Source of the DNA: Isosphaeraceae bacterium
GTDB lineage: Bacteria; Planctomycetota; Planctomycetia; Isosphaerales; Isosphaeraceae
NCBI GenBank assembly: GCA_965199885.1
Contig: CBDATT010000002.1
Coordinates: 1-64,000 of the forward strand
Length of the DNA stretch: 64,000 nt
Reading direction: 5' to 3'
Under the pieces are notes generated by a model that was not told the origin of the DNA, ran no database searches, and saw only the letters and a program-made list of their open reading frames with translations. The position numbers and the translations under genes are program-made. The stretch's first letter is position 1, and every line of letters starts with the position of its first letter. This document shows positions 6,133 through 57,642 of this stretch, piece after piece.

Positions 6133-6283
6133 GGCGTCCGCCGTTCCTTTGTTCGCTGCCCGTCGCTGCGCTACTGACTCACTCACCAATGAACCATTCC
6201 GCCCGATCCGGGGCGGATCGACTCCAAGCCGACCCGCCCCACCCTGCGATCCGAACCGTTTCCTACGGAACGAGTCAGTGCCG

Positions 6284-6336
6284 AAAAAGAGGGACAGGCA
6301 CCGCTCCTGCGTCGCTTGAGCCAGTCCCCTTTTTCT
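6284..6336. terminator. conserved bidirectional terminator-like hairpin (copy 1): A-tract, 9-bp GC stem, conserved 21-nt loop, T-tract
   Basis: AAAAAGAGGGACAGGC-ACCGCTCCTGCGTCGCTTGAG-CCAGTCCCCTTTTTC lies immediately 3' of the minus-strand prepilin gene (stop at 6364) and 5' of the next gene (start at 6132). Confidence 0.5.
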
Positions 6337-6363
6337 CGACCCCTCCACGCGCCAGGAAATCGC

Positions 6364-7545
6364 TTAGTCGAGCCGACCACCCGAGAAGTTGGTGATGTTG
6401 TCGCTCTCACGCTGGCGAATACCCGTCTGGTCATCACCGTTGATATTGCCGGGGTCGGTTGCCACCGGCAGCATCGGCAACTTGCCGTTGCCTCCCAGGC
6501 TATTTTGCACATAAGTCCCACCCAGGCCGTAGTACCGATCCTGCCCGGCGGAAAAGAGCTGGAACGAGTTCGGATTCAGCCACGAGACCGTCCCCGATGC
6601 CGCCGGCCCCGAGGTGTAGGGGTTCGGCGAGGGGGAAATATCCAGGGTGGACGCCGTGTTGGTCCCCGACAGATACACCGGGAAGTTGACCAGGAAGCCG
6701 CGAGCCACCGGCGTGCTGCCGTCTTCCTCGAACTCGTAGTCGATCGCCGTCGCCGAGTTGTGGCCGAGCCCATTGATGTCGTTCGGGTCGTACGAGTTCG
6801 TGCCGTACGAGGCGAAGTAGGCATAAGCGCGGCGGTTGCCCGGCGTGATGTCGAGCGGGTCGAGGTACGACGGGATGTGGTCGCCGTCAAGGTCCACCAA
6901 TCGGCCGGCGACGAACTCGTAGTTGGCCGCTGTCCGGTTGGTGGCGAGGGTGCTGTTGATGAACGGATTCGTCGGGAGCTTGCTGAACCCACTCACGCCG
7001 GTGACGACGCCGTTGTTCAGGATCGGAATCCCGCCGAGGAAGAAGGTCAGGCATTCCGACCCATTCAAAAGGGTGGCATGCCCCAGGGCACCGTCATTGA
7101 TCCCGTTGCCGTTGAAGTCGAAGAAACCAGGGCTCGTCGGCGGGACCAGAAAGTTGACCCGCGGCCAGAACGACCGGAGGATGGCCAGCGACCGGTTAGC
7201 GAGGTCCTTGTCGGTGATGTCGGAATCGTTCGACCCGGCGCCGGCGATTGCGGTGCCTGCTGCTGAGGCGAAGAAGGCGGTAAACCCCGCCTCGGGCAAC
7301 AAGACCCGGCTCGGCGGGAAGGCGCCATAGGTCGTCTTGAAGCTCGCCAGCGCGGTCGCCATGTTGTTCAACTCGGCGGCGACCTGCGCTTCGCGGGCTC
7401 GCCGGAACGCACCCGCAATCGCGGGGAGCAAGAGCGCCAGCAGGATGGCGATGATCAGGATCACAACCAGAATTTCCACCAGCGTGAAGCCAAGCCGGCG
7501 GCTGCCAGAGCCAGGGCGAAGGTCGGGGCGGTCGGGGCGGTCCAT
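6364..7545 (-). CDS. prepilin-type N-terminal cleavage/methylation domain protein (about 394 aa)
   Basis: The prepilin motif MDRPDRPDLRPGSGSRRLG|FTLVEILVVILIIAIL starts at the internal Met (7545-7543). The upstream part of the ORF is a Pro-rich low-complexity artefact. The start coordinate is uncertain and could extend as far as 7749. Confidence 0.55.
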   Translation of the reverse strand: MDRPDRPDLRPGSGSRRLGFTLVEILVVILIIAILLALLLPAIAGAFRRAREAQVAAELNNMATALASFKTTYGAFPPSRVLLPEAGFTAFFASAAGTAIAGAGSNDSDITDKDLANRSLAILRSFWPRVNFLVPPTSPGFFDFNGNGINDGALGHATLLNGSECLTFFLGGIPILNNGVVTGVSGFSKLPTNPFINSTLATNRTAANYEFVAGRLVDLDGDHIPSYLDPLDITPGNRRAYAYFASYGTNSYDPNDINGLGHNSATAIDYEFEEDGSTPVARGFLVNFPVYLSGTNTASTLDISPSPNPYTSGPAASGTVSWLNPNSFQLFSAGQDRYYGLGGTYVQNSLGGNGKLPMLPVATDPGNINGDDQTGIRQRESDNITNFSGGRLD

Positions 7546-7770
7546 CGGTCGAAGCTCCGCGGAAGGTGGTTCAGGAGGAGAAACAGGTTTACCCAGGACA
7601 ACGAAACCAGTGTGTTTTGGGGACGACCCGGGCCAGACCCGCCGGGCGGCACCGGGGGCCGCTCCGCTCCGCGCCGGCAGCCGGATCGCGGCGGAAGGTG
7701 AATCAACCGGGTCGATTTCAGGGTGACCAGGCAACGAAGGGAGGATCAACCGCGCGGAGCGAGGACGTCC

Positions 7771-7798
7771 GGCCCGTGATCTCGCGAGATTACGGGCC
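7771..7798. promoter_or_regulatory. 28-nt near-perfect palindrome between gspF/pilC stop and prepilin gene start
   Basis: GGCCCGTGATCTCG|CGAGATTACGGGCC (13 of 14 pairs complementary). It could be an RNA hairpin or a dimeric operator. Confidence 0.3.
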
Positions 7799-7860
7799 GA
7801 TCAGCCCGGCGTGACGACCAATTCGGCCGCCACGCCTCGGGTTTTGCCAGGGTCGTCGGC

Positions 7861-9111
7861 TCAGCCCGACAGCTTGCTGATCAGCGAGATCAGCGGCAGG
7901 AACAACGCGATGACGATGAACCCGATGATCCCACCCAGGACCACGATCATGATCGGTTCAAGCAAGCTCACCAGCGACTCGACCAGCGTTTCGACTTCTT
8001 CGTCATAGTTGTCGGCAATCTTGTTGAGCATCGTGTCGAGGTCGCCCGTTTCCTCACCGACGTCGATCATGTTGACCACGATGTCGTCGACGATCCGCGC
8101 TTCGCGGAGCGGCTGCGCGATCGTTTCCCCTTCGCGGATACTCTCGTAGATCCGGGTAAACGCCCGCTCGAACACCATGTTCCCCGCCGTGTCGCGGACG
8201 ATGTTCAGCGACTCCAAAATCGGCACGCCCGACTGCACCAGCGTCCCCAGCGTCCGCGTCGTCCGGGCCACCGTCGACTTCTCGACGATCTGCCCCATGA
8301 CCGGAATCAAGAGCAAGATCCGGTCAAGGATGTACGCTCCCGTCTTGTTCCGATAGATCAATTTAATCATGATCACAAACAAGACCGGTGCCAGGATGAC
8401 AAGATAAAACTTGTCGACCACGACGTGGCTGGCCACGATCAGGAATTTGGTCATCCCCGGCAGGTCGACGCCGAAGTCTTTGAAGATCGCCTCGAACTTC
8501 GGAATGATGAAGTACAGGATGAACCCGACGATCAAGCACGCGACCGAGATGACGACGATCGGGTAAACCATCGCCGACTTGATCCGCCGCTTCAGCGTTT
8601 GCGACTTTTCCTTGAAGTCCGCCAGGCGCTGCAAGATCGCTTCCAGGGCACCGCCCGCCTCACCCGCCTTGATCATGTTGCAATAGAGCTTGTCGAACGC
8701 CTTGGGGTGCTTGGCGAAGGCGTCGGAGAGCGTGGCTCCCGACTCGATATCTTCAACCACGTCTTCCAAAGCGTTCTTCAAGACCCCCGGCTTCGACTGG
8801 CCGTGGAGGATCTTCAGGCTCCGCAGGATCGGCAGACCGGCGTCTTGCAGCGTCGAAAGCTGACGGGTGAACGTGCAAAGCTGCTTCGTCGAGATCTTGC
8901 CGATCGTGAACGACTTCTTCTTCCCCTTGCGCCCGCCCTTCTTGGCGCCGGCGGGTCCCTTTTTCTTCGCCTTGGCCCGCTCGGAGATCTTCGTGACGAA
9001 GAACCCCTTCTGGCGGATCAGTTGCTGCGCTTCTTCCTGGGTGCTGGCGTCGATGGTGTCCTTCACCTCGCGCCCGGTATTATCCATCGCCTCATATTGA
9101 AACGTCGGCAT
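7861..9111 (-). CDS. type II secretion system protein F / type IV pilus platform protein PilC family
   Basis: 416 aa with two GspF-type repeats and three TM segments. It has an unusual Lys-rich insertion, AKAKKKGPAGAKKGGRKGKKK, in the N-terminal cytoplasmic domain. Confidence 0.85.
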   Translation of the reverse strand: MPTFQYEAMDNTGREVKDTIDASTQEEAQQLIRQKGFFVTKISERAKAKKKGPAGAKKGGRKGKKKSFTIGKISTKQLCTFTRQLSTLQDAGLPILRSLKILHGQSKPGVLKNALEDVVEDIESGATLSDAFAKHPKAFDKLYCNMIKAGEAGGALEAILQRLADFKEKSQTLKRRIKSAMVYPIVVISVACLIVGFILYFIIPKFEAIFKDFGVDLPGMTKFLIVASHVVVDKFYLVILAPVLFVIMIKLIYRNKTGAYILDRILLLIPVMGQIVEKSTVARTTRTLGTLVQSGVPILESLNIVRDTAGNMVFERAFTRIYESIREGETIAQPLREARIVDDIVVNMIDVGEETGDLDTMLNKIADNYDEEVETLVESLVSLLEPIMIVVLGGIIGFIVIALFLPLISLISKLSG

Positions 9112-9211
9112 CCTCGGGACTCCTTCGCTCGGTCTGGGTCGCGGTGGTCGGTGACAGTGTCAGCAGGAAGTGATTCAATGATTGAAACGAATCAGGCCAG
9201 GCCGGGGCGGC

Positions 9212-10930
9212 TCACTCGTCGTCGAGCATGGTTTCGCGGATGATCTCTTCGATCGACGTTTGCCCGGTGTGGATCGCTTCGAGCCCCGACTCGCGGAGGG
9301 TTCGCATCCCGTACTTCCGGCACTCGTCGCGGAAAGCGTCGAGCGACGCTTCGGAGACGACCATCTCGCGGAGGTGTTCGTTCATGACCAGGAGTTCATA
9401 GATCCCCATCCGCCCCTTGTACCCGGTGTTGTTGCACTTCTCGCAACCCTTGCCGTAGTAGAACTTTTTCGACGCGGCGACCTCGGGGGTCATCCCCAGC
9501 TCCATCGCCACTTCGGGACTCGGGGTGAACTCGGTCCGGCAGTTGGTGCAGATCCGCCGGACGAGCCGTTGCGCGAGCACCGCCTCGATCGTCGCGGTGA
9601 TCAAGAACGTCGGGATACCCATGTCACGGAGCCGGGTGATCGCCGACGGCGCGTCGTTGGTGTGCAGCGTCGTGAAGACGATGTGCCCGGTCAACGACGC
9701 CTGAATCGCGATCTCGGCGGTTTCAAGGTCGCGGGTCTCACCGACGAGGATCTTGTCGGGGTCTTGCCGCAGGATCGCCCGCAAGCAGGCGGCGAACGTC
9801 ACCCCGATCTCGCCGTTGATCGGCACCTGGATCAGGCCGTCGATGTCGTACTCGACCGGCTCCTCGGTGGTGATGATCTTTTCTTCCGGCGTGTTCAACT
9901 CGTTGAGCGTGGCGTAGAGCGTCGTCGTCTTGCCCGACGACGTCGGCCCGGTCACCAGGATGATCCCGTTCGGCTTGTGGATGATCTCGCGCCAGACCAC
10001 CAGCGTATCCTCGGGCATGCCGATCTTGCGGATGTCGAGGTTGACCACGGTCCGGTCGAGGATTCGCAGCACGACGCTCTCACCGAACAGGGTCGGCAGG
10101 GTCGAAACGCGGATATCGACCTGGTTACCGCCGATCGCCAGCTCGATCCGGCCGTCCTGCGGCAGCCGACGTTCGGCGATGTCGAGGTTCGACATGACCT
10201 TGATGCGCGACGAGATCGCGGGGGCCAGGTGGCGGGGCGGCGGCACGAGTTCATAGAGGATGCCGTCCACCCGGTACCGCATCTTGTACTCGTCTTCAAA
10301 CGGCTCGAAGTGGATGTCCGACGCCTTGTCCTTGATGGCGAGCAGGAGCACCATGTTCAGGAGCTTGCGAACGGGCGCGGCCTCGGCCATTTCCTCGATC
10401 GCTTCGAGGTCGATCGTGTTTTCGTTCCGGTTCTGGAACTGCGACAGCCCCTTGTCGTTTTCGATCTGCTTGACGACGTCCTGAATCGACTCCTGCTTGC
10501 CGGCATAGAGGCGCGTGATCGCCGCCATCACGTCGGATTCCGCCGCGATCACCCCTTTGACGTCGACGCCGAGGAACGACTTGATGCTGTCGAGCGTCTG
10601 CGGGTCGCGGGGGTCGGCCATCGCGACGGTGACGCTCTTGTCCTTCTTGTGCTGCGAGACCGGGACGATCTTGAACGTCGTCGCCATCGTCTCGTTGACC
10701 AGCTCGGTCAACTCGGCGGGCACCGCCATCTCACCGAGCCGAACCACCTTCATGCCGAACTGTTCGCCGAGCGCCTTGAGCACCTGATCCTCGGTGACCA
10801 CGCCGAGGCGCACCGCGACCTTGCCCAGCAGCTCGTTATCCGACCGCTTCTGCTCTTCGAGCACCTTCCAGAGGGTATCGTCGCTGATGTACCCCATGTC
10901 GACCAGGATCGTGCCGATTCGCCGAGCCAT
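9212..10930 (-). CDS. GspE/PilB-family secretion ATPase with N-terminal T2SSE_N domain
   Basis: 572 aa. Walker A box GPTSSGKTTTLYA, Asp box, His box, and a tetracysteine motif CTNC...CEKC are present. The N-terminal region resembles the GspE N-domain. Confidence 0.85.
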   Translation of the reverse strand: MARRIGTILVDMGYISDDTLWKVLEEQKRSDNELLGKVAVRLGVVTEDQVLKALGEQFGMKVVRLGEMAVPAELTELVNETMATTFKIVPVSQHKKDKSVTVAMADPRDPQTLDSIKSFLGVDVKGVIAAESDVMAAITRLYAGKQESIQDVVKQIENDKGLSQFQNRNENTIDLEAIEEMAEAAPVRKLLNMVLLLAIKDKASDIHFEPFEDEYKMRYRVDGILYELVPPPRHLAPAISSRIKVMSNLDIAERRLPQDGRIELAIGGNQVDIRVSTLPTLFGESVVLRILDRTVVNLDIRKIGMPEDTLVVWREIIHKPNGIILVTGPTSSGKTTTLYATLNELNTPEEKIITTEEPVEYDIDGLIQVPINGEIGVTFAACLRAILRQDPDKILVGETRDLETAEIAIQASLTGHIVFTTLHTNDAPSAITRLRDMGIPTFLITATIEAVLAQRLVRRICTNCRTEFTPSPEVAMELGMTPEVAASKKFYYGKGCEKCNNTGYKGRMGIYELLVMNEHLREMVVSEASLDAFRDECRKYGMRTLRESGLEAIHTGQTSIEEIIRETMLDDE

Positions 10931-11183
10931 GCATCCACCCTTCTTCCGCGCGGGCCAATCGTGTCCGGACTTTTGCTTGCCGCGATCAGGTCAGATTGAG
11001 TTGAATTCGAGCAGCCCGGACCAGAACGGCCCAGGCGAGGACTAGAATGAAGTGGCGAGTCCGGGGAAGACTCGCCGCGAGGCAAACCTGGATTGCTGTT
11101 GGACTTTGGACGCCTGGCGACCCCAAAAAGTTTCCGGCGTGTTGCTGAATTGCATCAACCGGCCGTCACCGAGCCGCCGAGTT

Positions 11184-12293
11184 TCAATCGTCCTCTTCCT
11201 CCGCCTCGTCGTCGTCCATGATCCCCTTTTTGGCGTTGTCGATGCGTCCCCGCAACTCTTCCGGTTTCCGCGACTTGTACATCGCTTCCTCTTCCGTGAT
11301 CAGCCCCTGCTTCCACAGGTTATACAGGCTGTCATCGAGGAGGATCATCCCGTGTTTGCGCCCGGTCTGAATCGACGAGTCGATCCGGTACGTCTTGTTT
11401 TCGCGGATCAGGTTCGAGATGGCGGGGGTGACGACGAGCATCTCGTACGCGGCGACCAGCCCCTTGGGGATGCGGGGCACAAGCGCCTGCGCGAGCACCC
11501 CGAGGATGGCGACGGAAAGCTGCGTGCGGATCTGGTCCTGCTGTTCCTTCGGGAACACGTCGATGATCCGGTTGACCGTTCCTTCAGCCGAGTTCGTGTG
11601 CAGCGTCCCGAAGACGATGTGCCCGGTCTCGGCGGCGGTGACGGCGGCCTGAATCGTCGCGAGGTCACGCATTTCGCCGACGAGGATGATGTCGGGGTCC
11701 ATCCGGAGGGCACGCCGAATCGCCTCGGGGAAGTCGGGAACGTCGATCCCGATCTCGCGCTGGTTGATCAGCGACTTCTTGTGCTTGTGGTAGTACTCGA
11801 TCGGGTCTTCGATCGTGATGATGTGCCGGTCCATGTTGTCGTTGATCCAGTTGATCATCGACGCCAGGGATGTCGTCTTGCCCGACCCCGTCGGCCCCGT
11901 CACGAGGATCAAACCGCGCGGCCGTTGAATCAACTGCTCCATGACGGCCGGCAACCCGAGTTGCTGGAACGTCAGGAATTCGTTCGGCACCCGTCGGAGG
12001 ACCAGGCCGATATTGCCGCGCTGCTTGAAGATGGCAACGCGGAACCGGGCGGCATCACCGAAGGCGAACCCAAAGTCGCACCCGCCGACTTCCTGCAACT
12101 CCTGCTGGCAGCGTTCGGGGGTGATCGACTTCATCAGGGCCGAGGTGTCCGACGACTCAAGCACCTTTGTATTGAGCGGGACCATGTGCCCGCCCAGCCG
12201 GAGCATCGGCTTTGAGCCGACGGTCAGGTGGAGGTCGCTGGCCTTTTGGGTCACGACCGTTTGCAACAACTTGTCGATCAGCAGCGTTCCCAT
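11184..12293 (-). CDS. pilT: twitching motility / pilus retraction ATPase PilT family
   Basis: 369 aa with no N-terminal GspE domain. Walker A box GPTGSGKTTSLASMIN and the PilT-type AIRRALRMDPDIILVGEMRD and His box are present. It has an acidic C-terminal tail DDDEAEEEDD. Confidence 0.85.
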   Translation of the reverse strand: MGTLLIDKLLQTVVTQKASDLHLTVGSKPMLRLGGHMVPLNTKVLESSDTSALMKSITPERCQQELQEVGGCDFGFAFGDAARFRVAIFKQRGNIGLVLRRVPNEFLTFQQLGLPAVMEQLIQRPRGLILVTGPTGSGKTTSLASMINWINDNMDRHIITIEDPIEYYHKHKKSLINQREIGIDVPDFPEAIRRALRMDPDIILVGEMRDLATIQAAVTAAETGHIVFGTLHTNSAEGTVNRIIDVFPKEQQDQIRTQLSVAILGVLAQALVPRIPKGLVAAYEMLVVTPAISNLIRENKTYRIDSSIQTGRKHGMILLDDSLYNLWKQGLITEEEAMYKSRKPEELRGRIDNAKKGIMDDDEAEEEDD

Positions 12294-12632
12294 GAGCGAG
12301 TCGAACCTTTCGCGGAGACTCCGCCAACATCAACCCCACCAGCGCGAGTCGGGGGGTTGACTTTGTCCTGTCGACTAGATGTCCACCGAAAAGGCACCAC
12401 TTTCCGATCGGAAGTGGCGGACCGAGAGAACGATCGGTCCACACCTGATTATTTCGGTGGACAAGGGGAGGATCAAGCACGCCCCCCGAGCGAATTTCGT
12501 CGTAAGCGGCGACGACGGCTCGAATCTCAGGGCAGATCCGAGCCGTCGCGGGGGTCTTGTGGGACGACCCAAACCGGGATCATCCCGAGCAATCCAATGA
12601 GTAGAGACAGTTGGTATTGCGTGCGGTCCGAA

Positions 12633-14366
12633 TCATGTGCCGGTTTCGGACATCGACTCGTGGTGGGTGATCCGGAGGATCTCGTCGATCGTCGTCAGCC
12701 CCTTGAGAGCCTTGATGATCCCGTCCTCGAACAACGTGTGCATCCCCTGTTTCCGAGCGGCTTTACGGATGACGTTGGTCGGTTCCCCCTTGAACGTCAT
12801 GTCGCGGATGGTGCTGGTCATCACCATCAACTCATGGATACCCATCCGGCCCCGGTAGCCCGTCTTGTTGCAGTTCGAGCACCCCTTGCCCTTCATGAAG
12901 TTCGCCTTCTTGGCGATCTCGGGACGGATGCCGATCGACTTCAAAACGTGCGCGGCGGGCTCGTACCGAACCTTGCACTTCGGGCAGATTTTCCGGACCA
13001 ACCGCTGCGCCATGATCCCCATAACCGAGCTGGCGACGAGGAACGGTTGCACGCCGATATCGACCAGTCTTGTTACAGCACTGGGCGCATCGTTCGTGTG
13101 CAGTGTACTGAAAACCAAGTGTCCTGTCAGGCTGGCCTGGATCGCCGTGTTGGCCGTCTCCTCGTCGCGGATTTCCCCGACCAGGAGGATGTTCGGATTT
13201 TGCCGGAGCATGGCCCGGATGATCCGCGCGAACGTCATGCCGATCTTGGCCTTGACCTCGCACTGGTTGACGCCGGGGAGGTAGTACTCGACCGGGTCCT
13301 CGGCGGTGATGATCTTGACGTCGGGGCGGTTCAACTCGTTGAGCGCGGCGTACAGGGTGGTCGTCTTGCCCGACCCCGTCGGCCCGGTCACGAGCAAGAT
13401 CCCGTTCGGCCGTTTGATCAGAGCCTGGAACCGCTTCCAGTTGTCGTCGGAGAATCCCATGTCGCGTAGACTGACCTTGATGTTATCGCGGTCCAGGATT
13501 CGCATGACGACCGACTGGCCATGGTTGGTCGGCAGGATCGAGACGCGGAGGTCGATGTCCTTGCCGGCGACGTGGATCTTGATCCGGCCGTCCTGCGGGC
13601 GCCGTTTTTCGGCAATGTCGATCGACCCCATGATCTTGATACGACTGACCATCGCCCCGAGGAGCCGGCGCGGGGCCGAGTCGCGCTCGACGCAAACGCC
13701 GTCGATCCGGTAGCGAATTCGGACCCGGTCGCCGAACGGTTCGATGTGGATGTCGGAGGCACGGGTGACGACCGCTTCCTGAATGATCAGGTGGACCAAC
13801 CGGATGACCGGCGCGTCGCCTTCTTCGAGCGTGTTTGCCGACGACCCGCTCTTGCCGGCCCCTGGACCTTCGTCGGAGAAGTCGATCGCGGTGTCGGTAA
13901 ATTCCGAGATCATCGAGTCGATCGACTCGGATTCCTGCGACTTGCCGCCATAATACTTGTTGATCGCTTCGAGGATCGCTTCCTTTGACGCCAGCGCCAC
14001 GTCGATCTCGCGGTTCAGGACGAACCGGAGTTTGTCGACCGTCTCGAAGTCGTTCGGGTTGGCCATGATGACCCGGATCATCCCGTTGACCGACGAGAGC
14101 GGCATCACGATGTTTTCGCGCGCGAGCGACTCAGGGACGAGTTCGAGCACCGACGCCGGGATGTCGATATCACGGAGCGCGATGAAATCCATGCTGAACT
14201 GCTCAGCCTTGGCCTTCATCACATCGTCGGTATCAACGTAACCGAGTTTCGCCAGCGCATCTTCCAGCGGCATGTTGCCCATCCGCTGGGCTTCCTTGAG
14301 CTGGTCGGGTCCGATCACCCCGCGCTTGACGAGGATATCGCTCCACTCACGAGCTTGCTTGGCCAT
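12633..14366 (-). CDS. second GspE/PilB-family secretion ATPase (paralogue of the 9212-10930 gene)
   Basis: Walker A box GPTGSGKTTTLYAA and a tetracysteine motif CPKC...CSNC. The start was moved to the Met at 14366, which has GGAGGA 6 nt upstream. Together with the other ATPases it flanks pilT. Confidence 0.8.
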   Translation of the reverse strand: MAKQAREWSDILVKRGVIGPDQLKEAQRMGNMPLEDALAKLGYVDTDDVMKAKAEQFSMDFIALRDIDIPASVLELVPESLARENIVMPLSSVNGMIRVIMANPNDFETVDKLRFVLNREIDVALASKEAILEAINKYYGGKSQESESIDSMISEFTDTAIDFSDEGPGAGKSGSSANTLEEGDAPVIRLVHLIIQEAVVTRASDIHIEPFGDRVRIRYRIDGVCVERDSAPRRLLGAMVSRIKIMGSIDIAEKRRPQDGRIKIHVAGKDIDLRVSILPTNHGQSVVMRILDRDNIKVSLRDMGFSDDNWKRFQALIKRPNGILLVTGPTGSGKTTTLYAALNELNRPDVKIITAEDPVEYYLPGVNQCEVKAKIGMTFARIIRAMLRQNPNILLVGEIRDEETANTAIQASLTGHLVFSTLHTNDAPSAVTRLVDIGVQPFLVASSVMGIMAQRLVRKICPKCKVRYEPAAHVLKSIGIRPEIAKKANFMKGKGCSNCNKTGYRGRMGIHELMVMTSTIRDMTFKGEPTNVIRKAARKQGMHTLFEDGIIKALKGLTTIDEILRITHHESMSETGT

Positions 14367-15245
14367 TGAGGTCCTCCGGAAGAAGGCGCGGAAGGTGATG
14401 GGACAGGATGCGAAAGCCAATCAGATTGGATCAAAACGTCGGCGCGGCGCGGCGACGGGACACATCGCGAACGGAAGCGCCCCCTGCATCATTCTAGCTT
14501 GTCGAGACGATGCGTGAATCCAGGGGTCGGCAAATGGCGGGGATTCACCCTGTCGGCGGTGATCGACTCGCAGGTCGCCTCAACGGCGCAACAGGATGCC
14601 AACCGGCCGGATCAACGCGGAATTGCGCGGCCGATCTTTCCCCAGGCTACCACGCCCACCCCTGACCCACAAGCGGCGCAGGCAAAAACCAGTCTCTATC
14701 AGAGATCTTAGATTTGTTGTGTGGGTGCAACCCACCGTGAATTTGACCTGCTCCCACCAGGCACCTCGAATCAGATTCTGTGGTCTTTCAATGACCACGC
14801 CCACGATCAATGGGATCCCACTTTGTAAAGTCTGGATCTGGCAAAGAATTGACGCTCTGCCATCCGAAACTTCCCCCCTTCGGAGGCGGAGATGAGTACC
14901 AGCGCAAGAAAGGCGACCTCGCCTCGTCCGATGTGGCCTTACGAACCCGATTAGATTGTCTTAAATAGGGCGATGTGGACAGATTATTGAAAATTCGGAA
15001 ATTATTTTGCCAAAGTAAACTGAAATGTCTCGCGATCTCCGATACTATTTCTGTTCAAACGTGCCGACGGTTGCGTCCCGGTCGGGTGGGTGTCAGTTTT
15101 CCGGGGCCAGATTCTGCCTTTTTTGGTCGGTTCCGGTCCACCGCACACGGGGGGCGGCACCCCCTCGACCAGGACGCAACTGGGGCGCATGGGAGCCTCG
15201 CATCGTCGAATTTCACACCCAGGATCGCCGAGGGAGTCTGCATCC

Positions 15246-16214
15246 ATGAGCACTTCCGCCGCTCGGATCGAAGCCAACCGTAAAAACGCTCAGCTCAGCA
15301 CCGGTCCGACCAGCGTTGCCGGCAAGGCGGCGTCGCGGGGCAACGCCCTGAAGCATGGCCTGACCGCGACCGTCGTGGATCTCCCGCCCGACCATGCTCT
15401 GGCCCAGGGGGTCAACCTGCCTGGAGCAGCCTGGGGTAATGGCCAGATCAGGCGGGTGATGAGCCAGATCGACCGCGCCCAGCGGATCGAAGCCGACCTC
15501 CGCGCCGCGGCGGTCTGGCGTGCCCGGACGATGTGGCACGACGACCGCCAGGTCGAGGTCGCGCACCTGGGCGCCACCCTTGCCCGCGACCCGGCCCGCG
15601 TTGCGCTCTTGCTCCAGCAGACCCCGCACGGCTGCGACTGGCTGCTCGAGCGCTGGCGTGGGTTGGCGCGGGTGGTCGAGGCGGGCACGCTCTGGAACGA
15701 CGAGCAAAGCGAGTTGGTTTTCGACATGCTTGGCGTCCCTCGGCCGATCCGGACCGGCTTCCCGACCGGCACAACGCCGGATGATCAGGCCCGCCTGGCG
15801 CGCAATGTCCTGACGGACCTCACGGCGCGCCACGCCCGCGTCGTCGAGGCCGATGAGGTGGCCCGAAAGTTGGCCAGCAACGACGCCCGCGATACCCCGA
15901 CCGTCGAACTCCGCCAGGTCCGCCGCTACGAGCTTGGCCTGTTCCGTCAGCTCCGCTGGCTCCTCTCGACCACGTTCGGACCCACACCCGTTGCCGCGCC
16001 ATCCGATCCCGCTGAGCCAACCGTCGCCGAATCCGCCGCACCAAACGAAGCCATTCCTCCTGCCGAAACGAAGCCAACTCAGCCCGAGCCCGACGTGGTG
16101 CTTGACGACGAATCGGCTCCTCGACCGGCTCGGAGGCATCCCGACCCGGCCAAACTGGCCCAGCGCGACCGCAAAAATCGGCGCAAGCGGCAAGGTCAAA
16201 GTCGCTCTCGCTGA
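15246..16214 (+). CDS. hypothetical protein, member of a two-copy paralogous family in this window (N-terminal motif SAARxEANRxNAQLSxGP...KHGLT)
   Basis: Start chosen at MSTSAARIEANRKNAQLSTGPTSVAGKAASRGNALKHGLTA, which aligns with the N-terminus of the 54311 gene. The Pro-rich C-terminal tail is shared. Paralogy supports the plus strand over the antisense ORF 15213-16235. Confidence 0.45.
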   Translation: MSTSAARIEANRKNAQLSTGPTSVAGKAASRGNALKHGLTATVVDLPPDHALAQGVNLPGAAWGNGQIRRVMSQIDRAQRIEADLRAAAVWRARTMWHDDRQVEVAHLGATLARDPARVALLLQQTPHGCDWLLERWRGLARVVEAGTLWNDEQSELVFDMLGVPRPIRTGFPTGTTPDDQARLARNVLTDLTARHARVVEADEVARKLASNDARDTPTVELRQVRRYELGLFRQLRWLLSTTFGPTPVAAPSDPAEPTVAESAAPNEAIPPAETKPTQPEPDVVLDDESAPRPARRHPDPAKLAQRDRKNRRKRQGQSRSR

Positions 16215-43656: not shown

Positions 43657-44012
43657 TTGGTCAGCCGAGATGATCCCTGATCGATCAGCACCCCCCTGCG
43701 CATTGACCAGCGCGCCGATTGGCAGTGCGAATGTCATCTCGTCTGTCACAATGGCAGAATCAGGAACGGACACGCTGGTCAGGGGTCATTGCATGGATAC
43801 AATCACGAATTGTTAAGGTTGACCTTTGTTCCGCAGATTGCTCAACAGTTAAGAATTTCCCAACCAGAATTCCAAAAAAATATTTGCAATTCCCCGTATC
43901 TTATCTATCCTATCTACGGCTGGCACTGAGTTTGCCCTAGCTCGGTTCCCTTGTGTGCAATTCTCTTTGCGAGATTGCCTCGATTGACCTCTTTGAATCC
44001 TGGAGTGGATCC

Positions 44013-44592: not shown

Positions 44593-45258
44593 ATGAAGAT
44601 CCAGCATCCCCTGGCGATCAAGGCGGTCGAGGTTGGTGGCGCCTGGCTGATCCGGCGACTGGCAGGTTCGTGTCGGTTCCACTTCCAATATGCCGACCCG
44701 TCGGTCAACCCCGCCGTGGCCCGCGAGACCGGCCAGCGGTTCATCTACGCATTTTATCATGAAGTGATGCTTTTCCCCGCCTATTACTGGGCGTGGCCCG
44801 AGATGCAGATCCTGATCAGCGACCACCGCGACGGCGAGCTGATTACGCGCGTTGTCCGCCGGCTTGGCTTCGGCGTGATCCGGGGCTCGACCACCCGCGG
44901 CGGCGCCCGCGCGCTCCGCGAGATGACCCACCGGATCGACCAGGGCCACCTCTGCGTCACCCCCGACGGTCCGCGGGGCCCGCGCCGCCACGTCCATCAG
45001 GGGCTCGCGTATCTTTCGAGCAAGACCGGCCTGCCGATCGTCGGCGCGGGGATGGCCTTCAAGAATCCCTGGCGTGCTCGGAGCTGGGATCGCTTCGCCG
45101 TCCCTCGCCCCTTCAGCGCCGCCGCGTGCGTCGTGCCCGAACCGCTCCTGGTCCCCCCCGACGCCGACCGCGAGACCGTTGAATCCTGCCGCGCTGAGGT
45201 CGAACGCCGGATGCTCGCCGCGACCGAGGAAGCCGAGGCCTGGGTCGCGCGGCTGTGA
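44593..45258 (+). CDS. lysophospholipid acyltransferase family protein (DUF374)
   Basis: About 221 aa. The motifs FIYAFYHEVML, ISDHRDGELITRVVRRLGFGVIRGSTTRGGARAL and VTPDGPRGPR are characteristic of DUF374/LPLAT-like proteins. Confidence 0.5.
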   Translation: MKIQHPLAIKAVEVGGAWLIRRLAGSCRFHFQYADPSVNPAVARETGQRFIYAFYHEVMLFPAYYWAWPEMQILISDHRDGELITRVVRRLGFGVIRGSTTRGGARALREMTHRIDQGHLCVTPDGPRGPRRHVHQGLAYLSSKTGLPIVGAGMAFKNPWRARSWDRFAVPRPFSAAACVVPEPLLVPPDADRETVESCRAEVERRMLAATEEAEAWVARL

Positions 45259-45328
45259 GTTCGCGCGGATTCGATCACCCGCCAGTCGCAATCAGGTCAG
45301 ACATCGGGGTCAATTCTTAGTTTCTCTA

Positions 45329-45379
45329 GTTCCCAGCAAAGCAATTCGCATCGCAGAGACCAGATTGCAAATCGCCAAG
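45329..45379. repeat. about 50-nt intergenic repeat, copy A
   Basis: GTTCCCAGCAAAGCAATTCGCATCGCAGAGACCAGATTGCAAATCGCCAAG is about 85% identical to copy B (57053-57103). Confidence 0.4.
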
Positions 45380-45970
45380 TCGGAGAGTCAGAAGTCGTTG
45401 TTAATTATATTTTTAGCTCACATTTTTGGGTTTATGTCCGCAGAAAAAATGCCTCAGTTCGCTTGCTTGTTGGAGAGTGGTGTCAAGAACAACCAAAACT
45501 GACACCAATTTCATTTGCACCGATCGGTTCAGGTCAGGGGAAAGATCTGAGGAATTTTTGGCGCGATCGAAGCGTGGAAAGCGGATTTGATGTTGAGGTG
45601 TTCGATCGGTCGGCCGGAACTGGGTCAGCTCAACATCCGGGGTTGAGCCAGGATCGGCCGGGTTGCTTCGGATTGCCTCGATTTCCTACTCAGGGAGCAA
45701 AGAAGGACGCCCTCCCTTCTGGGTTGGGCATGTTAGCTCACCGCCGTTTGTTGGGCTAGCGCTGGGCCTTCCCCGGGTATTTGGTCCGTGCATAAATTTC
45801 CCCCCTCGGTCGAGTGCCGCCCCGCCGCTGTTTGTCGGGACGGCACTCGACTTTTTTGATGGCGAGAAGTTGGGACCACGCGAATGTTGATGAGTCGGGC
45901 ATGGACGCGCCCGCCGCGACCTGCGATCATGCAGGCGACGCGAATCGACCCGAGGTGACGGAGCCCAACC

Positions 45971-48355: not shown

Positions 48356-48717
48356 GTCAAAGCGATTTCTTGCTTTGTTGAATGACACAAGTCTGGCACG
48401 TGACGACCGCAGCGCCATCGTTTCCCAAGTTTGCCGAATGCCACTGGCCGCGTCGGCTGGCAACCGTACCGAACTCAGCGGATTTTTCGCGTGGGCACGC
48501 CCGGAGCAGGGTATCCATCGGGGGAGTATCATATTGATGATAATTTGCGTTAGAATGAGTGGACCAGGCGGTCGGTGTACTGCCGGCATCGTCCTTGATG
48601 TGACCAGGTTGGTTGTGATTAAGAGATTTACTCGCCCTGCGACATCGGGTGATCCGTCGGGGTCAGGCCCTTGCCAGCGGTGGTCTGCTCTCGAGCGATG
48701 GATGGTCCAGGTTGACT

Positions 48718-49434
48718 ATGCCCATTAACCCAGAACCCACCACGTCCGAAAATCGGCTCTTGAAAAAGCTGCCCGCCGCCGAACTCGACCGCTTGCAGCC
48801 GCACCTGAAACTGGAAGATCTGGAGATCAACCAGATCCTCTACGACCTGCGCGGGCCGATTGATACCGCTTACTTCCCCGGCGGTGCTGTGCTCTCGGCC
48901 TTGATGATCATGCAGGATGGGAATGCCATCGAGGTCGCGACCGTCGGCCGGGAAGGGCTGATCGGGCATACCGCCCTGCAGGGGAGTGCGATCTCGCCGA
49001 ACCGGATGATCGTGCAGATCCCGGGCAAGGTCTGGAGGATCTCGGTCGATGCCCTGGCCCGGGAGGCGAACGGGTGCCTTGTTCTACGTGGCCTCCTCAT
49101 CAGATACCAGGTTGCATTCCTGGCGCAGGTGTCTCAATCGGTGGCGTGCAACGGGTTGCACCGGCTTGAACAGCGCTGCTGCTGCTGGCTCCTGATGAGT
49201 CGCGACCGGCTCGGCTCGGATGACCTCCGCTTGACCCAGGAATTTCTTGCCATCATGCTCGGCGCCCGGCGGGCGAGCGTGACCGAAACCCTCAAGCCTC
49301 TCCAGGAAGCCAATCTCGTTCGATCCTACCGCGGGCAGATCTCGATCCTTGACGGGGCAGGGCTCGAAGAGCGGGCGTGCGAGTGCTACCAGATGGTCAA
49401 GGATGAGTACGACCGCTTGCTCGGAGTCTCGTGA
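48718..49434 (+). CDS. Crp/Fnr family transcriptional regulator
   Basis: cNMP-binding beta-roll (YFPGGAVLSALMIMQDGNAIEVATVGREGLIGH) plus a C-terminal HTH (ITQEFLAIMLGARRASVTETLKPLQEANLV). Confidence 0.7.
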   Translation: MPINPEPTTSENRLLKKLPAAELDRLQPHLKLEDLEINQILYDLRGPIDTAYFPGGAVLSALMIMQDGNAIEVATVGREGLIGHTALQGSAISPNRMIVQIPGKVWRISVDALAREANGCLVLRGLLIRYQVAFLAQVSQSVACNGLHRLEQRCCCWLLMSRDRLGSDDLRLTQEFLAIMLGARRASVTETLKPLQEANLVRSYRGQISILDGAGLEERACECYQMVKDEYDRLLGVS

Positions 49435-50989: not shown

Positions 50990-51147
50990 TCCAGACACGC
51001 AATTGCTGTCACACCGATCCGATCCTAGACTGAGCGGAACGAGCACCAACGGCGGGGAGACCACGCCGGTCCGGTCCGATCGGCGTGGCTCGTGCGCATC
51101 CCCGCCGGCAAGTCGCGGTGCTCGAGCTCTACGGGAGATCGCACCTG

Positions 51148-52659
51148 ATGTTTACGAGACGAGCCATCATTGATCGAGGCCGGGGTCGGTCGCTGCTCCG
51201 GCGGCGCGCCGTGCTCGCGGTCGAGGCCATGGAAGGGCGGCAACTGCTGACGGCGGCGGCCTTCTCGGTCACGCAGGACTGGGGGTCGGGCTTCGGCGGG
51301 CAGGTGGTCATCACCAACACGGCGGCAACGCCGGTCACCAACTGGACGCTTGCCTTCGACTTCGACAGGTCGATCACGTCGGTCTGGGACGGCACGATCA
51401 CCAGCCATGTCGGCAACCACTACGTCGTCACCAACGCCGGCTGGAACTCAACCATCGCCGCCACCGGCGGGACCGCCGAGTTCGGCTTCAACGGCGCCAC
51501 CGGCAACGTCGGGACCGACCACCCGACCAACTACACTCTCAACGGCGTCGCCCTCGGTACCGCATCCCCGACGCCAACGCCAACTCCCACACCGTCGCCA
51601 ACTCCAACTCCATCACCAACCCCCACACCAACCCCGACCCCTACACCGACCCCGACCCCGACCCCTACACCATCACCAAGCCCGACGGCACCGGTCGCCG
51701 GGGCCTGGCCATCTCATGTCTACGCTCCTTACGTCGATATGACGTTGTACCCAACTTATAACCTGGTCCAGACCGCTCAACAGCAGGGGATCAAATACTT
51801 CTCGATGGCCTTTATCGTGGCCGACCCGTCCAACAAGGCCCCGAGCTGGGGCGGGTACAGTTCTTATGACGTCAACGGCGGAAGTTTCGACCTGGCGATC
51901 CGGGCGCAGCTTGCCGCGCTTCGCAAGATCGGCGGCGACGCGATGGTCTCCTTCGGCGGTGCGGCGGGGACCGAACTGGCGCAGGCGATCACCAGCGTGC
52001 CAGCCTTGACGGCCGCCTACGAGCAGGTGATCAACGCCTATGGCCTGACCCACATCGACTTCGACATCGAAGGGGCCGCCGAGGCCGACGCCGCGTCGAT
52101 CGCCCGCCGCTCGCAGGCAATCGCGGCGGTCGAGCAGGACATGCTCGCCGCCGGCCGGTCGCTCAGCGTCAGCTATACCTTGCCCGCCTTGCCCACCGGC
52201 CTGACCAGTGATGGCCTGGCCGTGGTCAAATCCGCGCTCCAGTACGGCGTCAAGCTGGCGGGAGTGAACATCATGACGATGGACTTCGGTGACTACGCAG
52301 CTCCGAAGCCCGCCGGGCAGATGGGAAGCTACGTCATCGCCGCGGGCAACGCTCTGGAGGCACAACTGCAAACGCTCTACGGGTCGAGCCAGTCAAGTAC
52401 GCAACTCTGGGCGATGGTCGGGATCACGCCGATGATCGGCGTCAACGACGTCAGCACTGAGGTCTTCGGCATCGCCGACGCCAATCAGGTGCTCGCCTGG
52501 GCCCAATCGAAGGGAATTGGGCGGATTTCGATCTGGTCGCTCAACCGCGATCAGGCCAACCCGAAGGGACCGCTCACCTACGCCGAGGCCACTTCCAGCA
52601 GCATCGCGCAGACGCCGTACCAGTTCTCGATCCTCTTCAACAAGTTCACTTCGTCGTAA
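51148..52659 (+). CDS. secreted chitinase: CBM2 carbohydrate-binding module, Pro/Thr linker, GH18 catalytic domain
   Basis: Signal peptide, a CBM2-like module (SVTQDWGSGFGGQVVITNTAATPVTNWTLAFDF...W...GFNGA...TLNGVALG), a (TP)n linker, and GH18 motifs SFGGAAG (SxGG) and HIDFDIEG (DxDxE). Confidence 0.7.
   Translation: MFTRRAIIDRGRGRSLLRRRAVLAVEAMEGRQLLTAAAFSVTQDWGSGFGGQVVITNTAATPVTNWTLAFDFDRSITSVWDGTITSHVGNHYVVTNAGWNSTIAATGGTAEFGFNGATGNVGTDHPTNYTLNGVALGTASPTPTPTPTPSPTPTPSPTPTPTPTPTPTPTPTPTPSPSPTAPVAGAWPSHVYAPYVDMTLYPTYNLVQTAQQQGIKYFSMAFIVADPSNKAPSWGGYSSYDVNGGSFDLAIRAQLAALRKIGGDAMVSFGGAAGTELAQAITSVPALTAAYEQVINAYGLTHIDFDIEGAAEADAASIARRSQAIAAVEQDMLAAGRSLSVSYTLPALPTGLTSDGLAVVKSALQYGVKLAGVNIMTMDFGDYAAPKPAGQMGSYVIAAGNALEAQLQTLYGSSQSSTQLWAMVGITPMIGVNDVSTEVFGIADANQVLAWAQSKGIGRISIWSLNRDQANPKGPLTYAEATSSSIAQTPYQFSILFNKFTSS
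51565..51690 (+). repeat. tandem ACN-CCN (Thr/Ser-Pro) repeat encoding the PT linker of the chitinase
   Basis: Protein reads SPTPTPTPTPSPTPTPSPTPTPTPTPTPTPTPTPTPSPSPT. The DNA is an imperfect 6-nt tandem repeat. Confidence 0.6.
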
Positions 52660-54310: not shown

Positions 54311-55405
54311 ATGCCTGCTCCCATCTCCGCCGCTCGCCTGCAAGCCAACCGCCGGAACGCCCAGCTTTCGAGCGGACCGAAGACGCCCGAGGGCAAGGCA
54401 CGCTCACGAGCTAACGCCGTCAAGCACGGTCTGACCGGCGCCGGGATCGCCTTGCCGAGCGAGGATGCCGCCGCGATCGAGGCCCGCTTCCTCACGATGC
54501 AGGAAGATTTTGCTCCCTCCACGCTTGGCGGCGCCTTGTTGATCCACCTGGCCGCCCTGATGTCGGTGCGGATCGAGCGCTGTGGTCGCCTGGAAGCCGC
54601 CGCCGTGGCCCACCTCCGTCGCCACGCGGGCGACGAGTTTGAGCTGGCTCGCCTGGACGACATCGACGACCTCTTCCATACCATCACCGCCGACCCGCGC
54701 GGCAATCACCGCCGGTTACAAACGAGTATCGAGGGGGTGGACCTTTTGCTCGCCGCCTTGCAAGGCGTGCGCGATCAGGTCGAATCGGGCGCTTACCAGA
54801 CGTGGACCGACGAGGACCGCGCCCAGGTGGACGCCTTCCTCGGTGGGGCATCCTCGAAGTTCCTGCGGTCGCGGGCCGCTGCGCTGATGCAGGCGTTGCA
54901 GGGCAACCTCGACGGCATCACCTCCCGCGAACGGACCCAACTGCCGCCCGGCGACACGCGCCAGTCGCATCTGCGCGTTGAGCTGATCTTGCTGGTCGAC
55001 GTCGAGCGTGCCCGCCTGGAGCAGGTCCGAGCCACCATCGACCCCTCGATCGTCGCCGATGATCGCCAGGAAGCCGCCGGGCGGGCCACCTTGCCGATGA
55101 CCCCCGAGTCGATCCTCCACAAGAAGTACGAGGCGGCGGCGATCAGCACCTTCCTGCGGGCCATCCGCGACTTCCAGAAGGTCGAAAAGGCCGAAGCCGA
55201 AGCGGTGGCCGAAGTGACTCAACCTGATGTCCAGCCCACAGTTGTGGCTCCCGCCGCAGCGCCTGTTCCCGCCGTGTCGCCTCCGGTCGCCGCCGTTCCC
55301 AATATGCAACCCGTCGTCAAAAACGAACCCATCGCGCCGCGGGCCGTTGACCCCAATCCGAACCCAAACAACGTCCCGGTCCATCATTTTTCCGGGTCGC
55401 GCTGA
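54311..55405 (+). CDS. hypothetical protein, paralogue of the 15246-16214 gene
   Basis: N-terminus MPAPISAARLQANRRNAQLSSGPKTPEGKARSRANAVKHGLTGAG aligns with MSTSAARIEANRKNAQLSTGPTSVAGKAASRGNALKHGLTA. The length is similar and the Pro-rich C-terminus is shared. Confidence 0.45.
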   Translation: MPAPISAARLQANRRNAQLSSGPKTPEGKARSRANAVKHGLTGAGIALPSEDAAAIEARFLTMQEDFAPSTLGGALLIHLAALMSVRIERCGRLEAAAVAHLRRHAGDEFELARLDDIDDLFHTITADPRGNHRRLQTSIEGVDLLLAALQGVRDQVESGAYQTWTDEDRAQVDAFLGGASSKFLRSRAAALMQALQGNLDGITSRERTQLPPGDTRQSHLRVELILLVDVERARLEQVRATIDPSIVADDRQEAAGRATLPMTPESILHKKYEAAAISTFLRAIRDFQKVEKAEAEAVAEVTQPDVQPTVVAPAAAPVPAVSPPVAAVPNMQPVVKNEPIAPRAVDPNPNPNNVPVHHFSGSR

Positions 55406-55613: not shown

Positions 55614-57026
55614 ATGTCGAGCCGCGCCGCTGACTCGTTGCTTGCGTTCCAGTGGACCGTCCAGCCCGCTGCCAGCGCGTGGGTAGATGCGGTCTGGATG
55701 ATGGTTCAGCGTGAGCTTCCCTGGGCACGCGACTTTGCCAACCGCCTGCTCAAAGAAGCCGGAACCCGGTTCGTCGACCTGATCGACACGGTTTTCTTGC
55801 CGTTGGGGGATGATCGGCTCGCGAGTGCGCTGGCCGCCGGCTGGGAAGCCAGCGGCACGAGTGGGAACTTCGAAGTTTTCGACCAGCCGCAGGGGATTTT
55901 TCCCTCGATCGCCGTCGGCGCGACGGCGCGGCTCGGTGTGGAGTTGAAGGTCGAGAGCGTGGTCGACTTTCTCGCCGCGCACACCCTGACACGGTCGATC
56001 GAGGGTCGCCCGGGCGCGCCTTATCGCCGGGTCGTCATCGACTCGGGGGCCGGCGTGGACCTGAGCATCGCCGAGCGGCACGGGACGCGAGGCTACTCGA
56101 CCGCTGATGGCCCGGATCTGGCCGCCATCCAGGCCGTGGTCGAGGACTTCCGGACCCGCCCGCGCGATTTCCTCGACCCCGCCGAGGGCTTCGCCGATGC
56201 CGAGCAGCGGATCGACGCCGCGATCGACCGGATCGGCCGCGACCATGCCTGCGACCTCTTCTTCCACGCCGAGCGTGCCTACTGGACGGGTCGGAACCAG
56301 GCGGCGCGGGTTCAAAAAGGGCGGCAGGATCGGCTCGGGATCGGCTGGGCGAACCACGACCACCACACGTATCGGAGCAGCCGATCGAGCTTCGCGCTAC
56401 TCGTCCGGGTCTTCGAAAAGCTCGGCCTCGTCTGCCGCGAGCGGTTCTACGCCGGGCTGGCGGCCGGTTGGGGGGCGCAGGTGATGGAGCACCCCGTGAC
56501 GCGGATCGTCACGTTCAACGACGTCGATCTCTCGCCCGCCGAGCTGCAAGGCGACTTCAGCCACGACGGCCTCGCCCCCCGCGCCAATCTGGCGACCATC
56601 GGCCTCTGGTGCGGGCTCCACGGCGAAGCGTTCCTCCAGGCGGGTATGCACCACCTGGAATGCGTCTTCAGCTTCGACGCCCTCCGCGACCAGCTCGCCG
56701 CCGAGGCCAACATCCGCGTCATGAAGCCCTTCACCGACTTCGGCTACCTCCGCCAGGCGTTCACCGAGGGGGAAAAGTGGGCCGTCGCCCCCACTCGGAT
56801 CGAAGCCTTGCGCAACCAGGGGCTGATCACCCCCGACCAGGCTGATCGGTTCCGGACCGAGGGCGCCATCGGCTCGCACCTCGAAAACCTGGAGCGCAAC
56901 GACGGCTTCAAGGGCTTCAACCAGCACGGAGTCAGCGAGATCATCGCCGCCACCGACCCCCGCCGCCAGGCCGACCGCGACGCCTTCGAGACCGTGGACT
57001 ACCAGACGGTTGGCACGCACGCATGA
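55614..57026 (+). CDS. hypothetical protein (470 aa)
   Basis: Long ORF with balanced, non-low-complexity composition, in contrast to the overlapping antisense ORFs. No family recognised. Confidence 0.4.
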   Translation: MSSRAADSLLAFQWTVQPAASAWVDAVWMMVQRELPWARDFANRLLKEAGTRFVDLIDTVFLPLGDDRLASALAAGWEASGTSGNFEVFDQPQGIFPSIAVGATARLGVELKVESVVDFLAAHTLTRSIEGRPGAPYRRVVIDSGAGVDLSIAERHGTRGYSTADGPDLAAIQAVVEDFRTRPRDFLDPAEGFADAEQRIDAAIDRIGRDHACDLFFHAERAYWTGRNQAARVQKGRQDRLGIGWANHDHHTYRSSRSSFALLVRVFEKLGLVCRERFYAGLAAGWGAQVMEHPVTRIVTFNDVDLSPAELQGDFSHDGLAPRANLATIGLWCGLHGEAFLQAGMHHLECVFSFDALRDQLAAEANIRVMKPFTDFGYLRQAFTEGEKWAVAPTRIEALRNQGLITPDQADRFRTEGAIGSHLENLERNDGFKGFNQHGVSEIIAATDPRRQADRDAFETVDYQTVGTHA

Positions 57027-57052: not shown

Positions 57053-57128
57053 GTTCCCAGGAAATGAATGCGCATCACAGAGATCAGATCGCAAATCGCA
57101 AAGGGTTCTCATGCCTTGATTTGCGATC
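57053..57128. repeat. about 50-nt intergenic repeat, copy B, including 11-bp perfect-stem hairpin
   Basis: GTTCCCAGGAAATGAATGCGCATCACAGAGATCAGATCGCAAATCGCAAAG, followed by the inverted repeat GATCGCAAATC (57087-97) / GATTTGCGATC (57118-28). Confidence 0.4.
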
Positions 57129-57198
57129 CTGCTATTTGCAATGCATCCTCGGTCTCTAATAATCAAATAAATATTTGTACTTACATATAAAATTCAGT

Positions 57199-57642
57199 TC
57201 ACGAACCCAGCACGACGGCCGCTCCCGTCAGCAGCAGGACCACGCCGCCCACGCGGAGCCACGACACCGCGTGCGGGTCGAACCCGAGTAAGCCGAAGTG
57301 GTCGAGGACGACCGACGTCACGATCTGGCCGGTGACGACGATGCCGAGCCAGGAGGCGGCTCCGAGCTTGCGTGAAAAGGTCACCGTCAGCAACAGGTAG
57401 ACCGCTCCGAGCGAGCCGCCGAGCCAGGCCCACCAGGGGCCGGCCTTCCACTGCGTCGCCGAGGGCCAGGGAGTCCGGGCGATGAGGCCGTAGACAAGCA
57501 GGACCAGAGTGCCCGAGGCGAACGAGGTGATGGCTGCGATGATCGGTTGGTCGAGCTTGACCCGGAGGCCGTTGTTGACTCCCACCTGGATCGCGATCGC
57601 GGCGCCGGCAACCAGGGCGATCGCCGCGTAAGTCCATGACAT
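57199..57642 (-). CDS. DMT family transporter (DUF606/YdcZ-like)
   Basis: 147 aa with 4-5 TM helices and the conserved pattern AIQVGVN...LGGSLGAVYLLLTVTFSRKLGAASWLGIVVTGQI. Confidence 0.6.
   Translation of the reverse strand: MSWTYAAIALVAGAAIAIQVGVNNGLRVKLDQPIIAAITSFASGTLVLLVYGLIARTPWPSATQWKAGPWWAWLGGSLGAVYLLLTVTFSRKLGAASWLGIVVTGQIVTSVVLDHFGLLGFDPHAVSWLRVGGVVLLLTGAAVVLGS

Follow-up and report, generated by a model that had tools for sequence, protein, structure and literature searches.

A non-coding unit of 51 bases occurs twice, 11.7 kb apart, in the stretch of Isosphaeraceae DNA analysed here (64,000 nucleotides, referred to as the window). Our data point, tentatively, to a lineage-specific, low-copy extragenic DNA repeat that arose as a copied segment rather than as an RNA gene. 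The two copies, A and B, are most likely an ordinary short dispersed repeat. The features at the two loci are as follows.

45329–45379, plus strand: copy A of the 51-nt repeat (consensus search, nhmmer and blastn of the AT-richer islands)
57053–57103, plus strand: copy B of the 51-nt repeat (consensus search, nhmmer and blastn of the AT-richer islands)
57087–57128, no strand assigned: perfect 11-bp inverted repeat, GATCGCAAATC / GATTTGCGATC, with a 20-nt loop (inverted-repeat search)
57118–57144, minus strand: B′, an inverted partial copy of the unit core (unit positions about 20–45; 21 of 27 bases, one gap)
57072–57144, no strand assigned: extended imperfect palindrome of B and B′, 73 nt, about −29 kcal/mol on either strand
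45281–45298, no strand assigned: possible weak inverted partner of the 3′ part of A (14 of 18 bases complementary, 59 nt away)

Copies A and B are both on the plus strand and are identical at 43 of 51 positions (84.3%) without a gap. A sequence of about 50 nt with about 85% identity between its two copies had been described at these positions in the original prediction; the letters were as quoted there, and consensus search, nhmmer and blastn agreed on both copies. The degenerate A/B consensus had only these two sites in the window, and 0 of 100 dinucleotide shuffles matched it. The nhmmer search with the A/B profile gave an E value of about 1e-14 for each copy and nothing further in the window below E=2. 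All-against-all blastn of the 39 low-GC islands of the window (10.4 kb in total) returned A/B as the sole long match (47 nt, E=1e-5), and A/B is the only significant repeat among these islands. Beyond A, B and B′, no more copies were found in the window by the consensus, by nhmmer with the 51-nt and three-copy core models or by short-word blastn. A weaker third resemblance had been suggested at 43938–43985. This was not borne out, as its Smith-Waterman score was 22 versus 25–30 in several unrelated islands, and nhmmer did not report it. MAFFT and local alignment detected no further similarity between the flanks of A and those of B, and the similarity stops abruptly at both ends of the unit. 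Neither a tandem partial unit after B nor direct-flank similarity was significant. A simple local duplication, of which similar flanks had been named as the sign, is not indicated because the flanks are unrelated. The sharp ends, the unrelated flanks and the uniqueness in the window all count for a copied segment.

The eight differences between A and B are at unit positions 9, 13, 14, 18, 25, 32, 38 and 48. They are evenly spread and therefore look neutral, which fits a copied segment. Direct reading of the sequence revealed neither a conserved block nor a codon periodicity among them. The 26-nt core of the unit is GCATCRCAGAGAYCAGATYGCAAATC. Frame 1 contains a stop in B, and reading in phase with the upstream gene puts A and B in different frames. 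GC3 of the unit is about 0.5, compared with about 0.85 in real genes, and the A/B differences have no bias by codon position. These data together indicate that the unit is not coding. Coding or stop-codon read-through, sigma-54, ECF-sigma, a Crp/Fnr site and integron attC were all examined and dropped, and tRNA-fragment att sites were dropped because the window contains no tRNA.

The G+C content of the window is about 63%, and the spacers are AT-richer. Genes for DUF1559 pseudopilins, for an ECF sigma factor of the planctomycete type and for a Ser/Thr kinase carrying WD40 repeats give the window a typical planctomycete character, and the best protein matches are from Isosphaeraceae, with Tundrisphaera sp. 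TA3 at 73–79%. Copy A is located 70 nt past the stop (45258) of a DUF374 acyltransferase-like gene (44593–45258). DUF374 is lysophospholipid-acyltransferase-like, and the end of this gene is confirmed by a 100%-identical database protein of 221 aa. Copy A lies inside an ORF-poor stretch of about 600 nt. Copy B is located 26 nt past the stop (57026) of a conserved gene for a 470-aa hypothetical protein (55614–57026). On its other side, a convergent YdcZ-type DMT gene on the minus strand (57199–57642), for which a 100%-identical database protein is on record, has its stop 95 nt from B. The expected location of both copies in AT-richer islands 3′ of plus-strand genes was thus confirmed. The label "miniature repeat" is also fair, as the repeat is real, sharply bounded and extragenic, with the same orientation just 3′ of plus-strand genes in both cases.

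The genes between A and B are ordinary ones. They encode a NagX-like acetyltransferase, a Crp-like regulator, a DUF1559 protein, a CBM2-GH18 protein, a SET-domain protein and two hypothetical proteins. Scans of the ORFs of this interval against Pfam, NCBIfam and PHROGs found no mobile-element, recombinase, integrase, transposase or phage family. The absence of a mobile-element or recombinase gene between A and B counts for a copied segment. An IS200/RAYT gene was not found in the window.

The stretch after the DUF374 gene (45259–45860) is ORF-poor and AT-rich, and it folds better than shuffled sequences (z = −2.8, from 20 shuffles only). It is closed by a canonical intrinsic terminator (45809–45858), in which an 11-bp perfect G+C-rich stem, GTCGAGTGCCG/CGGCACTCGAC, is followed by TTTTTT. 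The frame after the DUF374 stop is open for 167 codons, to 45759. The stretch may represent an extended 3′ UTR or a non-coding RNA that has escaped annotation, and it has no Rfam match.

Comparison with related genomes places copy A next to a break in gene order. Ten DUF374 loci of close relatives (93% amino acid identity) have the upstream order MscS...Lon-M50-PhyH-DapF-119aa-DUF374, which matches the window at 33.4–45.26 kb. Nucleotide synteny with these relatives stops exactly at the DUF374 stop (45258/45259), 70 nt upstream of A, and A is therefore just beyond a synteny or rearrangement breakpoint. Downstream of DUF374 the close relatives have a 364-aa gene followed by DUF2752, and the relative L035 (92% amino acid identity) has DUF2752 directly after DUF374. 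None of the relatives' downstream genes, which include DUF2752, dCMP deaminase, ThuA, AhpC, L31 and RF-1, is present in the window. Four relatives have an orthologue of the 470-aa gene (73–77% amino acid identity); their gene order differs, and no B-like element was found at these loci. The relatives' DNA, about 95 kb from Isosphaeraceae, contained no recognisable copy of the unit. The absence from relatives and the synteny break upstream of A count for a lineage-specific copy.

The spacer after DUF374 in relatives with 92–93% amino acid identity matches the 3′ half of the unit at 17 of 23 positions, which is within the background (Smith-Waterman p = 0.04–0.07). The fourfold-degenerate sites of DUF374 are 57% identical to those of the closest relatives compared. 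Silent sites are therefore saturated, homology of a neutral spacer would be unrecognisable, and the 17/23 match is uninformative. Set against 57% at silent sites, the 84% identity of A and B leads to two readings. Either the copying, if the unit evolves neutrally, would be much younger than the split from the close relatives, or the unit is constrained, and its sharp ends and 84% identity could instead reflect selection.

Searches of larger collections yielded no usable match. The genome collection (185,579 species, the source genome not among them) gave 14 matches to the 3′ half of the unit with 18 specified bases; these are chance matches, because their number is near that expected and none of them extends past the pattern. 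The metagenome collection gave 0 matches with 26 specified bases. The 5′ half of the unit had 5 matches there, all of them unrelated gene starts on the opposite strand, in Fmt (MRIIFLGTP...) and MBL-fold-like (MRIRLLGTGTP...) genes. Scans of the viral collection gave 1 chance match and 0 matches, and blastn against the plasmid collection gave nothing.

Copy B was said to run into a perfect hairpin, and this was confirmed. The arms (57087–57097 and 57118–57128) are 11 nt long, 100% complementary and separated by 20 nt, and the left arm is within B and the right arm within B′. The RNA folding energy of 57087–57128 is −20.3 kcal/mol on the plus strand and −19.6 kcal/mol on the minus strand. This is the joint longest perfect short-loop inverted repeat in the window, and perfect 11-bp inverted repeats are not rare there (4 in 64 kb). 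A 73-nt palindrome surrounds the 11-bp core because 57118–57144 is an inverted partial copy of the unit core. Support for B′ comes from local alignment (p of about 0.002–0.004 versus shuffled flank), from the core HMM (E=2e-5) and from a weak minus-strand match in nhmmer with the 51-nt profile. The B/B′ palindrome lies 46 and 55 nt from the convergent stops of the 470-aa gene (plus strand) and the YdcZ gene (minus strand). Its fold has a z of about −1.9 to −2.4 against shuffles, a modest signal that only the minus strand of A also gave. An intrinsic terminator has a G+C-rich stem, a short loop and a U-tract after it; the B hairpin has a stable stem, a 20-nt loop and no U-tract on either strand, and a terminator scan does not call it. 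The possible inverted partner of A at 45281–45298 is of marginal significance (p=0.05).

Shorter repeats are also found in these spacers. ATCGCAA is present twice in tandem inside copy B (57088–57102), and the ATTGCAAAT motif occurs in A, in B′ and at 43882. In the relative L024, ATTTGCAAT is repeated three times at close spacing just after a P-II gene (15671–15701), two of the repeats being separated by 7 nt, and this arrangement recalls the ATCGCAA tandem of B and the ATTGCAAAT motif. The short repeats of L024, B and A may be slippage-prone AT-rich spacer sequence or a common short motif.

We propose that, after the split from the nearest sequenced relatives, one of two spacers 3′ of genes received a copy of a 51-bp non-coding segment from the other. 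The copying may have been a templated or short-patch event, or a longer duplication whose flanks were later lost, and it might be tied to the rearrangements that broke synteny right after DUF374. We know of no demonstration of a precise 51-bp copy-paste mechanism in planctomycetes. The 3′ half of B and B′ form a palindrome centred between convergent genes. Judged from its position and predicted fold, the palindrome is most likely a putative 3′-end stem-loop for both the 470-aa and the YdcZ transcripts, which may function in transcription termination or 3′-end protection. In having about −29 kcal/mol on either strand and a position midway between convergent stops, B/B′ is similar to bidirectional terminators and 3′ stabilisers. 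It is unlike them in that the U-tract is missing and the stem has about 45% G+C, and no comparable hairpin exists at copy A. The B/B′ hairpin also looks quite different from the canonical terminator at 45809–45858. The missing U-tract and the fact that 11-bp perfect repeats are not rare count against the stem-loop role. Copy A, which has no such partner, is probably an orphan copy from rearrangement without a function of its own. As found, the pair carries little weight: it is a short low-copy extragenic repeat with a putative function only.

Other observations count against a copied segment. The inverted dimer B/B′ is typical of REP/BIME elements, and two copies within 12 kb are also expected of a high-copy family. 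As the main alternative, it is possible, if rather doubtful, that A and B/B′ belong to an untagged REP/BIME-like family of extragenic palindromes that is specific to this species and dispersed throughout the genome. Such a family might be mobilised by a Y1 (RAYT-like) transposase and have the generic roles of 3′ mRNA stabilisation and termination. A REP unit is a stem-loop of 20–40 bp with a stem of 5–13 bp, present in tens to thousands of copies per genome, and the two REP super-families are defined by a tetranucleotide, GTAG or CGTC, left unpaired at one end of the palindrome (PMC3733652). It speaks for this possibility that REP families are frequently confined to a single species and have been reported from Planctomycetes (PMC3733652, Di Nocera et al. 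2013). REP elements are extragenic and often form inverted dimers; both loci here are intergenic, and B/B′ is an inverted pair that forms a hairpin, with a spacing of 14–20 nt as in head-to-head REP dimers. A and B are also short and sharp-ended, are located just 3′ of genes in the same orientation relative to the upstream gene and have a short imperfect internal palindrome in each unit. The minus strand of A folds with G-U pairs (z = −2.15, a modest value). The A/B identity of 84% is consistent with the copy identity of about 80–85% shared with REP/BIME elements, and two loci within 12 kb is the expectation for a family of hundreds of copies. In contrast to REP elements, neither GTAG/CTAC nor CGTC/GACG is present at or adjoining the ends of A, B or B′, and the unit is 51 nt (core about 26 nt) rather than 20–40 nt. 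The 64-kb window contains two full copies and one partial copy, and the unit is carried by 2 of the 39 AT-richer islands. The lack of copies in the relatives' DNA and in the collection scans, and the lack of an IS200/RAYT gene in the window, also argue against such a family. A and B resemble MITEs and other miniature repeats (Correia/NEMIS, ERIC, BOX, RUP) in being short, non-coding, intergenic and sharply bounded. Unlike these, they have no terminal inverted repeats, since the ends GTTCCCAG... and ...CGCMAAG are non-complementary, and no target-site duplication is found in the flanks (CTCTA and TCGGA for A, GTCCG and GGTTC for B). A related transposase is lacking, and the unit is much shorter than most of these elements. 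An untagged REP/BIME-like (or 3′-UTR RNA) family confined to one Isosphaeraceae lineage, with A, B and B′ as the first members to be seen, is in our view unlikely. If it existed, the family would be scattered over the genome and would affect both the 3′ ends of transcripts and the breakpoints of rearrangements. Many copies in the complete genome would make it an untagged palindromic family in Planctomycetes and a marker of breakpoints and transcript 3′ ends. To our knowledge, REP-like elements have hardly been described in Planctomycetes, and the non-coding elements of this phylum are poorly charted.

The suggestion that the unit is a small RNA family or a 3′-UTR element was unsupported. A plus-strand functional RNA module, either a 3′-UTR element or a 3′-UTR-derived sRNA common to the DUF374 and 470-aa transcripts, would explain why both copies are 26–70 nt past plus-strand stops in the sense orientation, and A is within the well-folding, ORF-poor stretch of 600 nt that ends at the canonical terminator. 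Rfam 15 gave zero matches in the whole window at gathering thresholds, and at E<=5 only spurious snoRNA and miRNA matches, far below the gathering score, appeared around A and B. Folding of the 51-mers was no better than that of their shuffles (z = −0.2 and +0.5), and on the plus strand the fold of A plus flanks was worse than that of shuffles (z = +0.9). Each unit has an imperfect internal stem of 6–7 bp. Because the registers of these stems differ between A and B, no common structure is preserved, and no compensatory change keeps a common stem. A promoter or terminator at equivalent positions is not conserved, the unit is absent downstream of the orthologous genes in relatives, and no related sequence was found in relatives or collections. 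The lack of an Rfam match and of a shared or significant RNA structure counts against an RNA gene, and we regard the RNA module as improbable. A role as a DNA site has a still smaller chance of being correct. The unit would then be an operator for the Crp-like regulator (48649–49434), or a pair of Xer/dif-like sites on either side of an 11.7-kb module. The window has 6 occurrences of ATYGCAAAT, versus 0.6 expected, and 5 of the 6 sites are in intergenic islands, but most of this excess is contributed by the three copies of the repeat itself, and the shuffle control takes no account of local AT-richness. The TTG-N8-CAA (Crp/Fnr-like) arrangement present in A is destroyed in B. The dif site is a single-copy site of 28 bp at the replication terminus, with two 11-bp arms around a centre of 6–8 bp. 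The left part of B (AATGCGCATCA) is identical at 8 of 11 positions to what we take to be the XerC arm of E. coli dif, which resembles dif/IMEX-type modules, as do the direct repeats around the 11.7-kb block, and in relatives this block does not follow DUF374. Against dif, the spacing of the palindromic arms is about 10 nt instead of 6–8 nt, the match to the XerD arm is poor, there are two copies where dif should be single-copy, and the A–B interval has no recombinase or phage gene. The GC-skew sign change near 50 kb tracks gene orientation and a Pro/Thr-rich linker, and a clear replication terminus is not evident here. Membership of the dif/Xer class was rejected on the arm spacing, the two copies and the skew that follows gene orientation. 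No dif site has been predicted in Planctomycetes (PMC3025954), a point in favour of the DNA-site reading. The minus strand of the unit reads as a 28-nt leader, an ATG and 7 codons. The encoded MRIALLGT of A and MRIHFLGT(G) of B resemble MBL-fold and Fmt-type N-termini. A relic gene start or small ORF on this strand is highly improbable. In its favour, each of the five metagenome sequences matched by the 5′ half is a true gene start, the window has no such start motif besides A and B, and on the minus strand a perfect TATAAT precedes A by 25 nt. Against this, the ORFs have 13 and 44 codons and diverge right after codon 8, and they face the 3′ ends of intact plus-strand genes, so that gene decay in place is geometrically impossible. 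Independent truncations are also hard to reconcile with the end of similarity at the same base in A and B. By chance, about 2 matches to this 20-base pattern are expected, MRIxxLGT is a very common N-terminus, no Shine-Dalgarno sequence is present and B has no matching promoter.

Other features of the window and of the relatives' loci were noted. Cumulative GC skew rises to about 47–49 kb and then falls, and gene orientation changes from mostly minus to mostly plus near 40–42 kb. In 64 kb the skew is inseparable from coding-strand composition, and an origin or terminus was therefore not called. A degenerate 12-nt periodic repeat at 51559–51696 (ACC/CCN-rich) corresponds to the Pro/Thr-rich linker of the CBM2 and GH18-like protein (51085–52659) and adds to the locally negative GC skew.

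The 364-aa gene of the relatives has the N-terminus SAARxxANRxNAQxSxGPxTxEGK and no match in Pfam, NCBIfam or PHROGs. The 51-nt unit was considered as a conserved leader of this "SAARxxANRxNAQ" gene family, and this was dropped because there is no alignment between the regions upstream; viral contigs contain no member of the family. The gene is located between DUF374 and DUF2752 in one group of relatives (L025, 10667–12115) and is absent in another (L035, 1537–1663), and it thus behaves like an insertion of about 1.45 kb. At the right end of the insertion there are three direct repeats of GAACGAAGCCAAC (L025, 12047–12110). Two distant paralogues of the gene (35–37% identity) are present in the window, at 15246–16214 and 54311–55405. 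The window also contains a type IV pilus/type II secretion-like cluster on the minus strand (1410–14420). It includes three paralogous T2SSE ATPases (9212–10930, 11184–12293 and 12633–14420), a T2SSF platform protein (7861–9111) and several large proteins with N-terminal methylation motifs, and its genes are the source of most direct-repeat families in the window.
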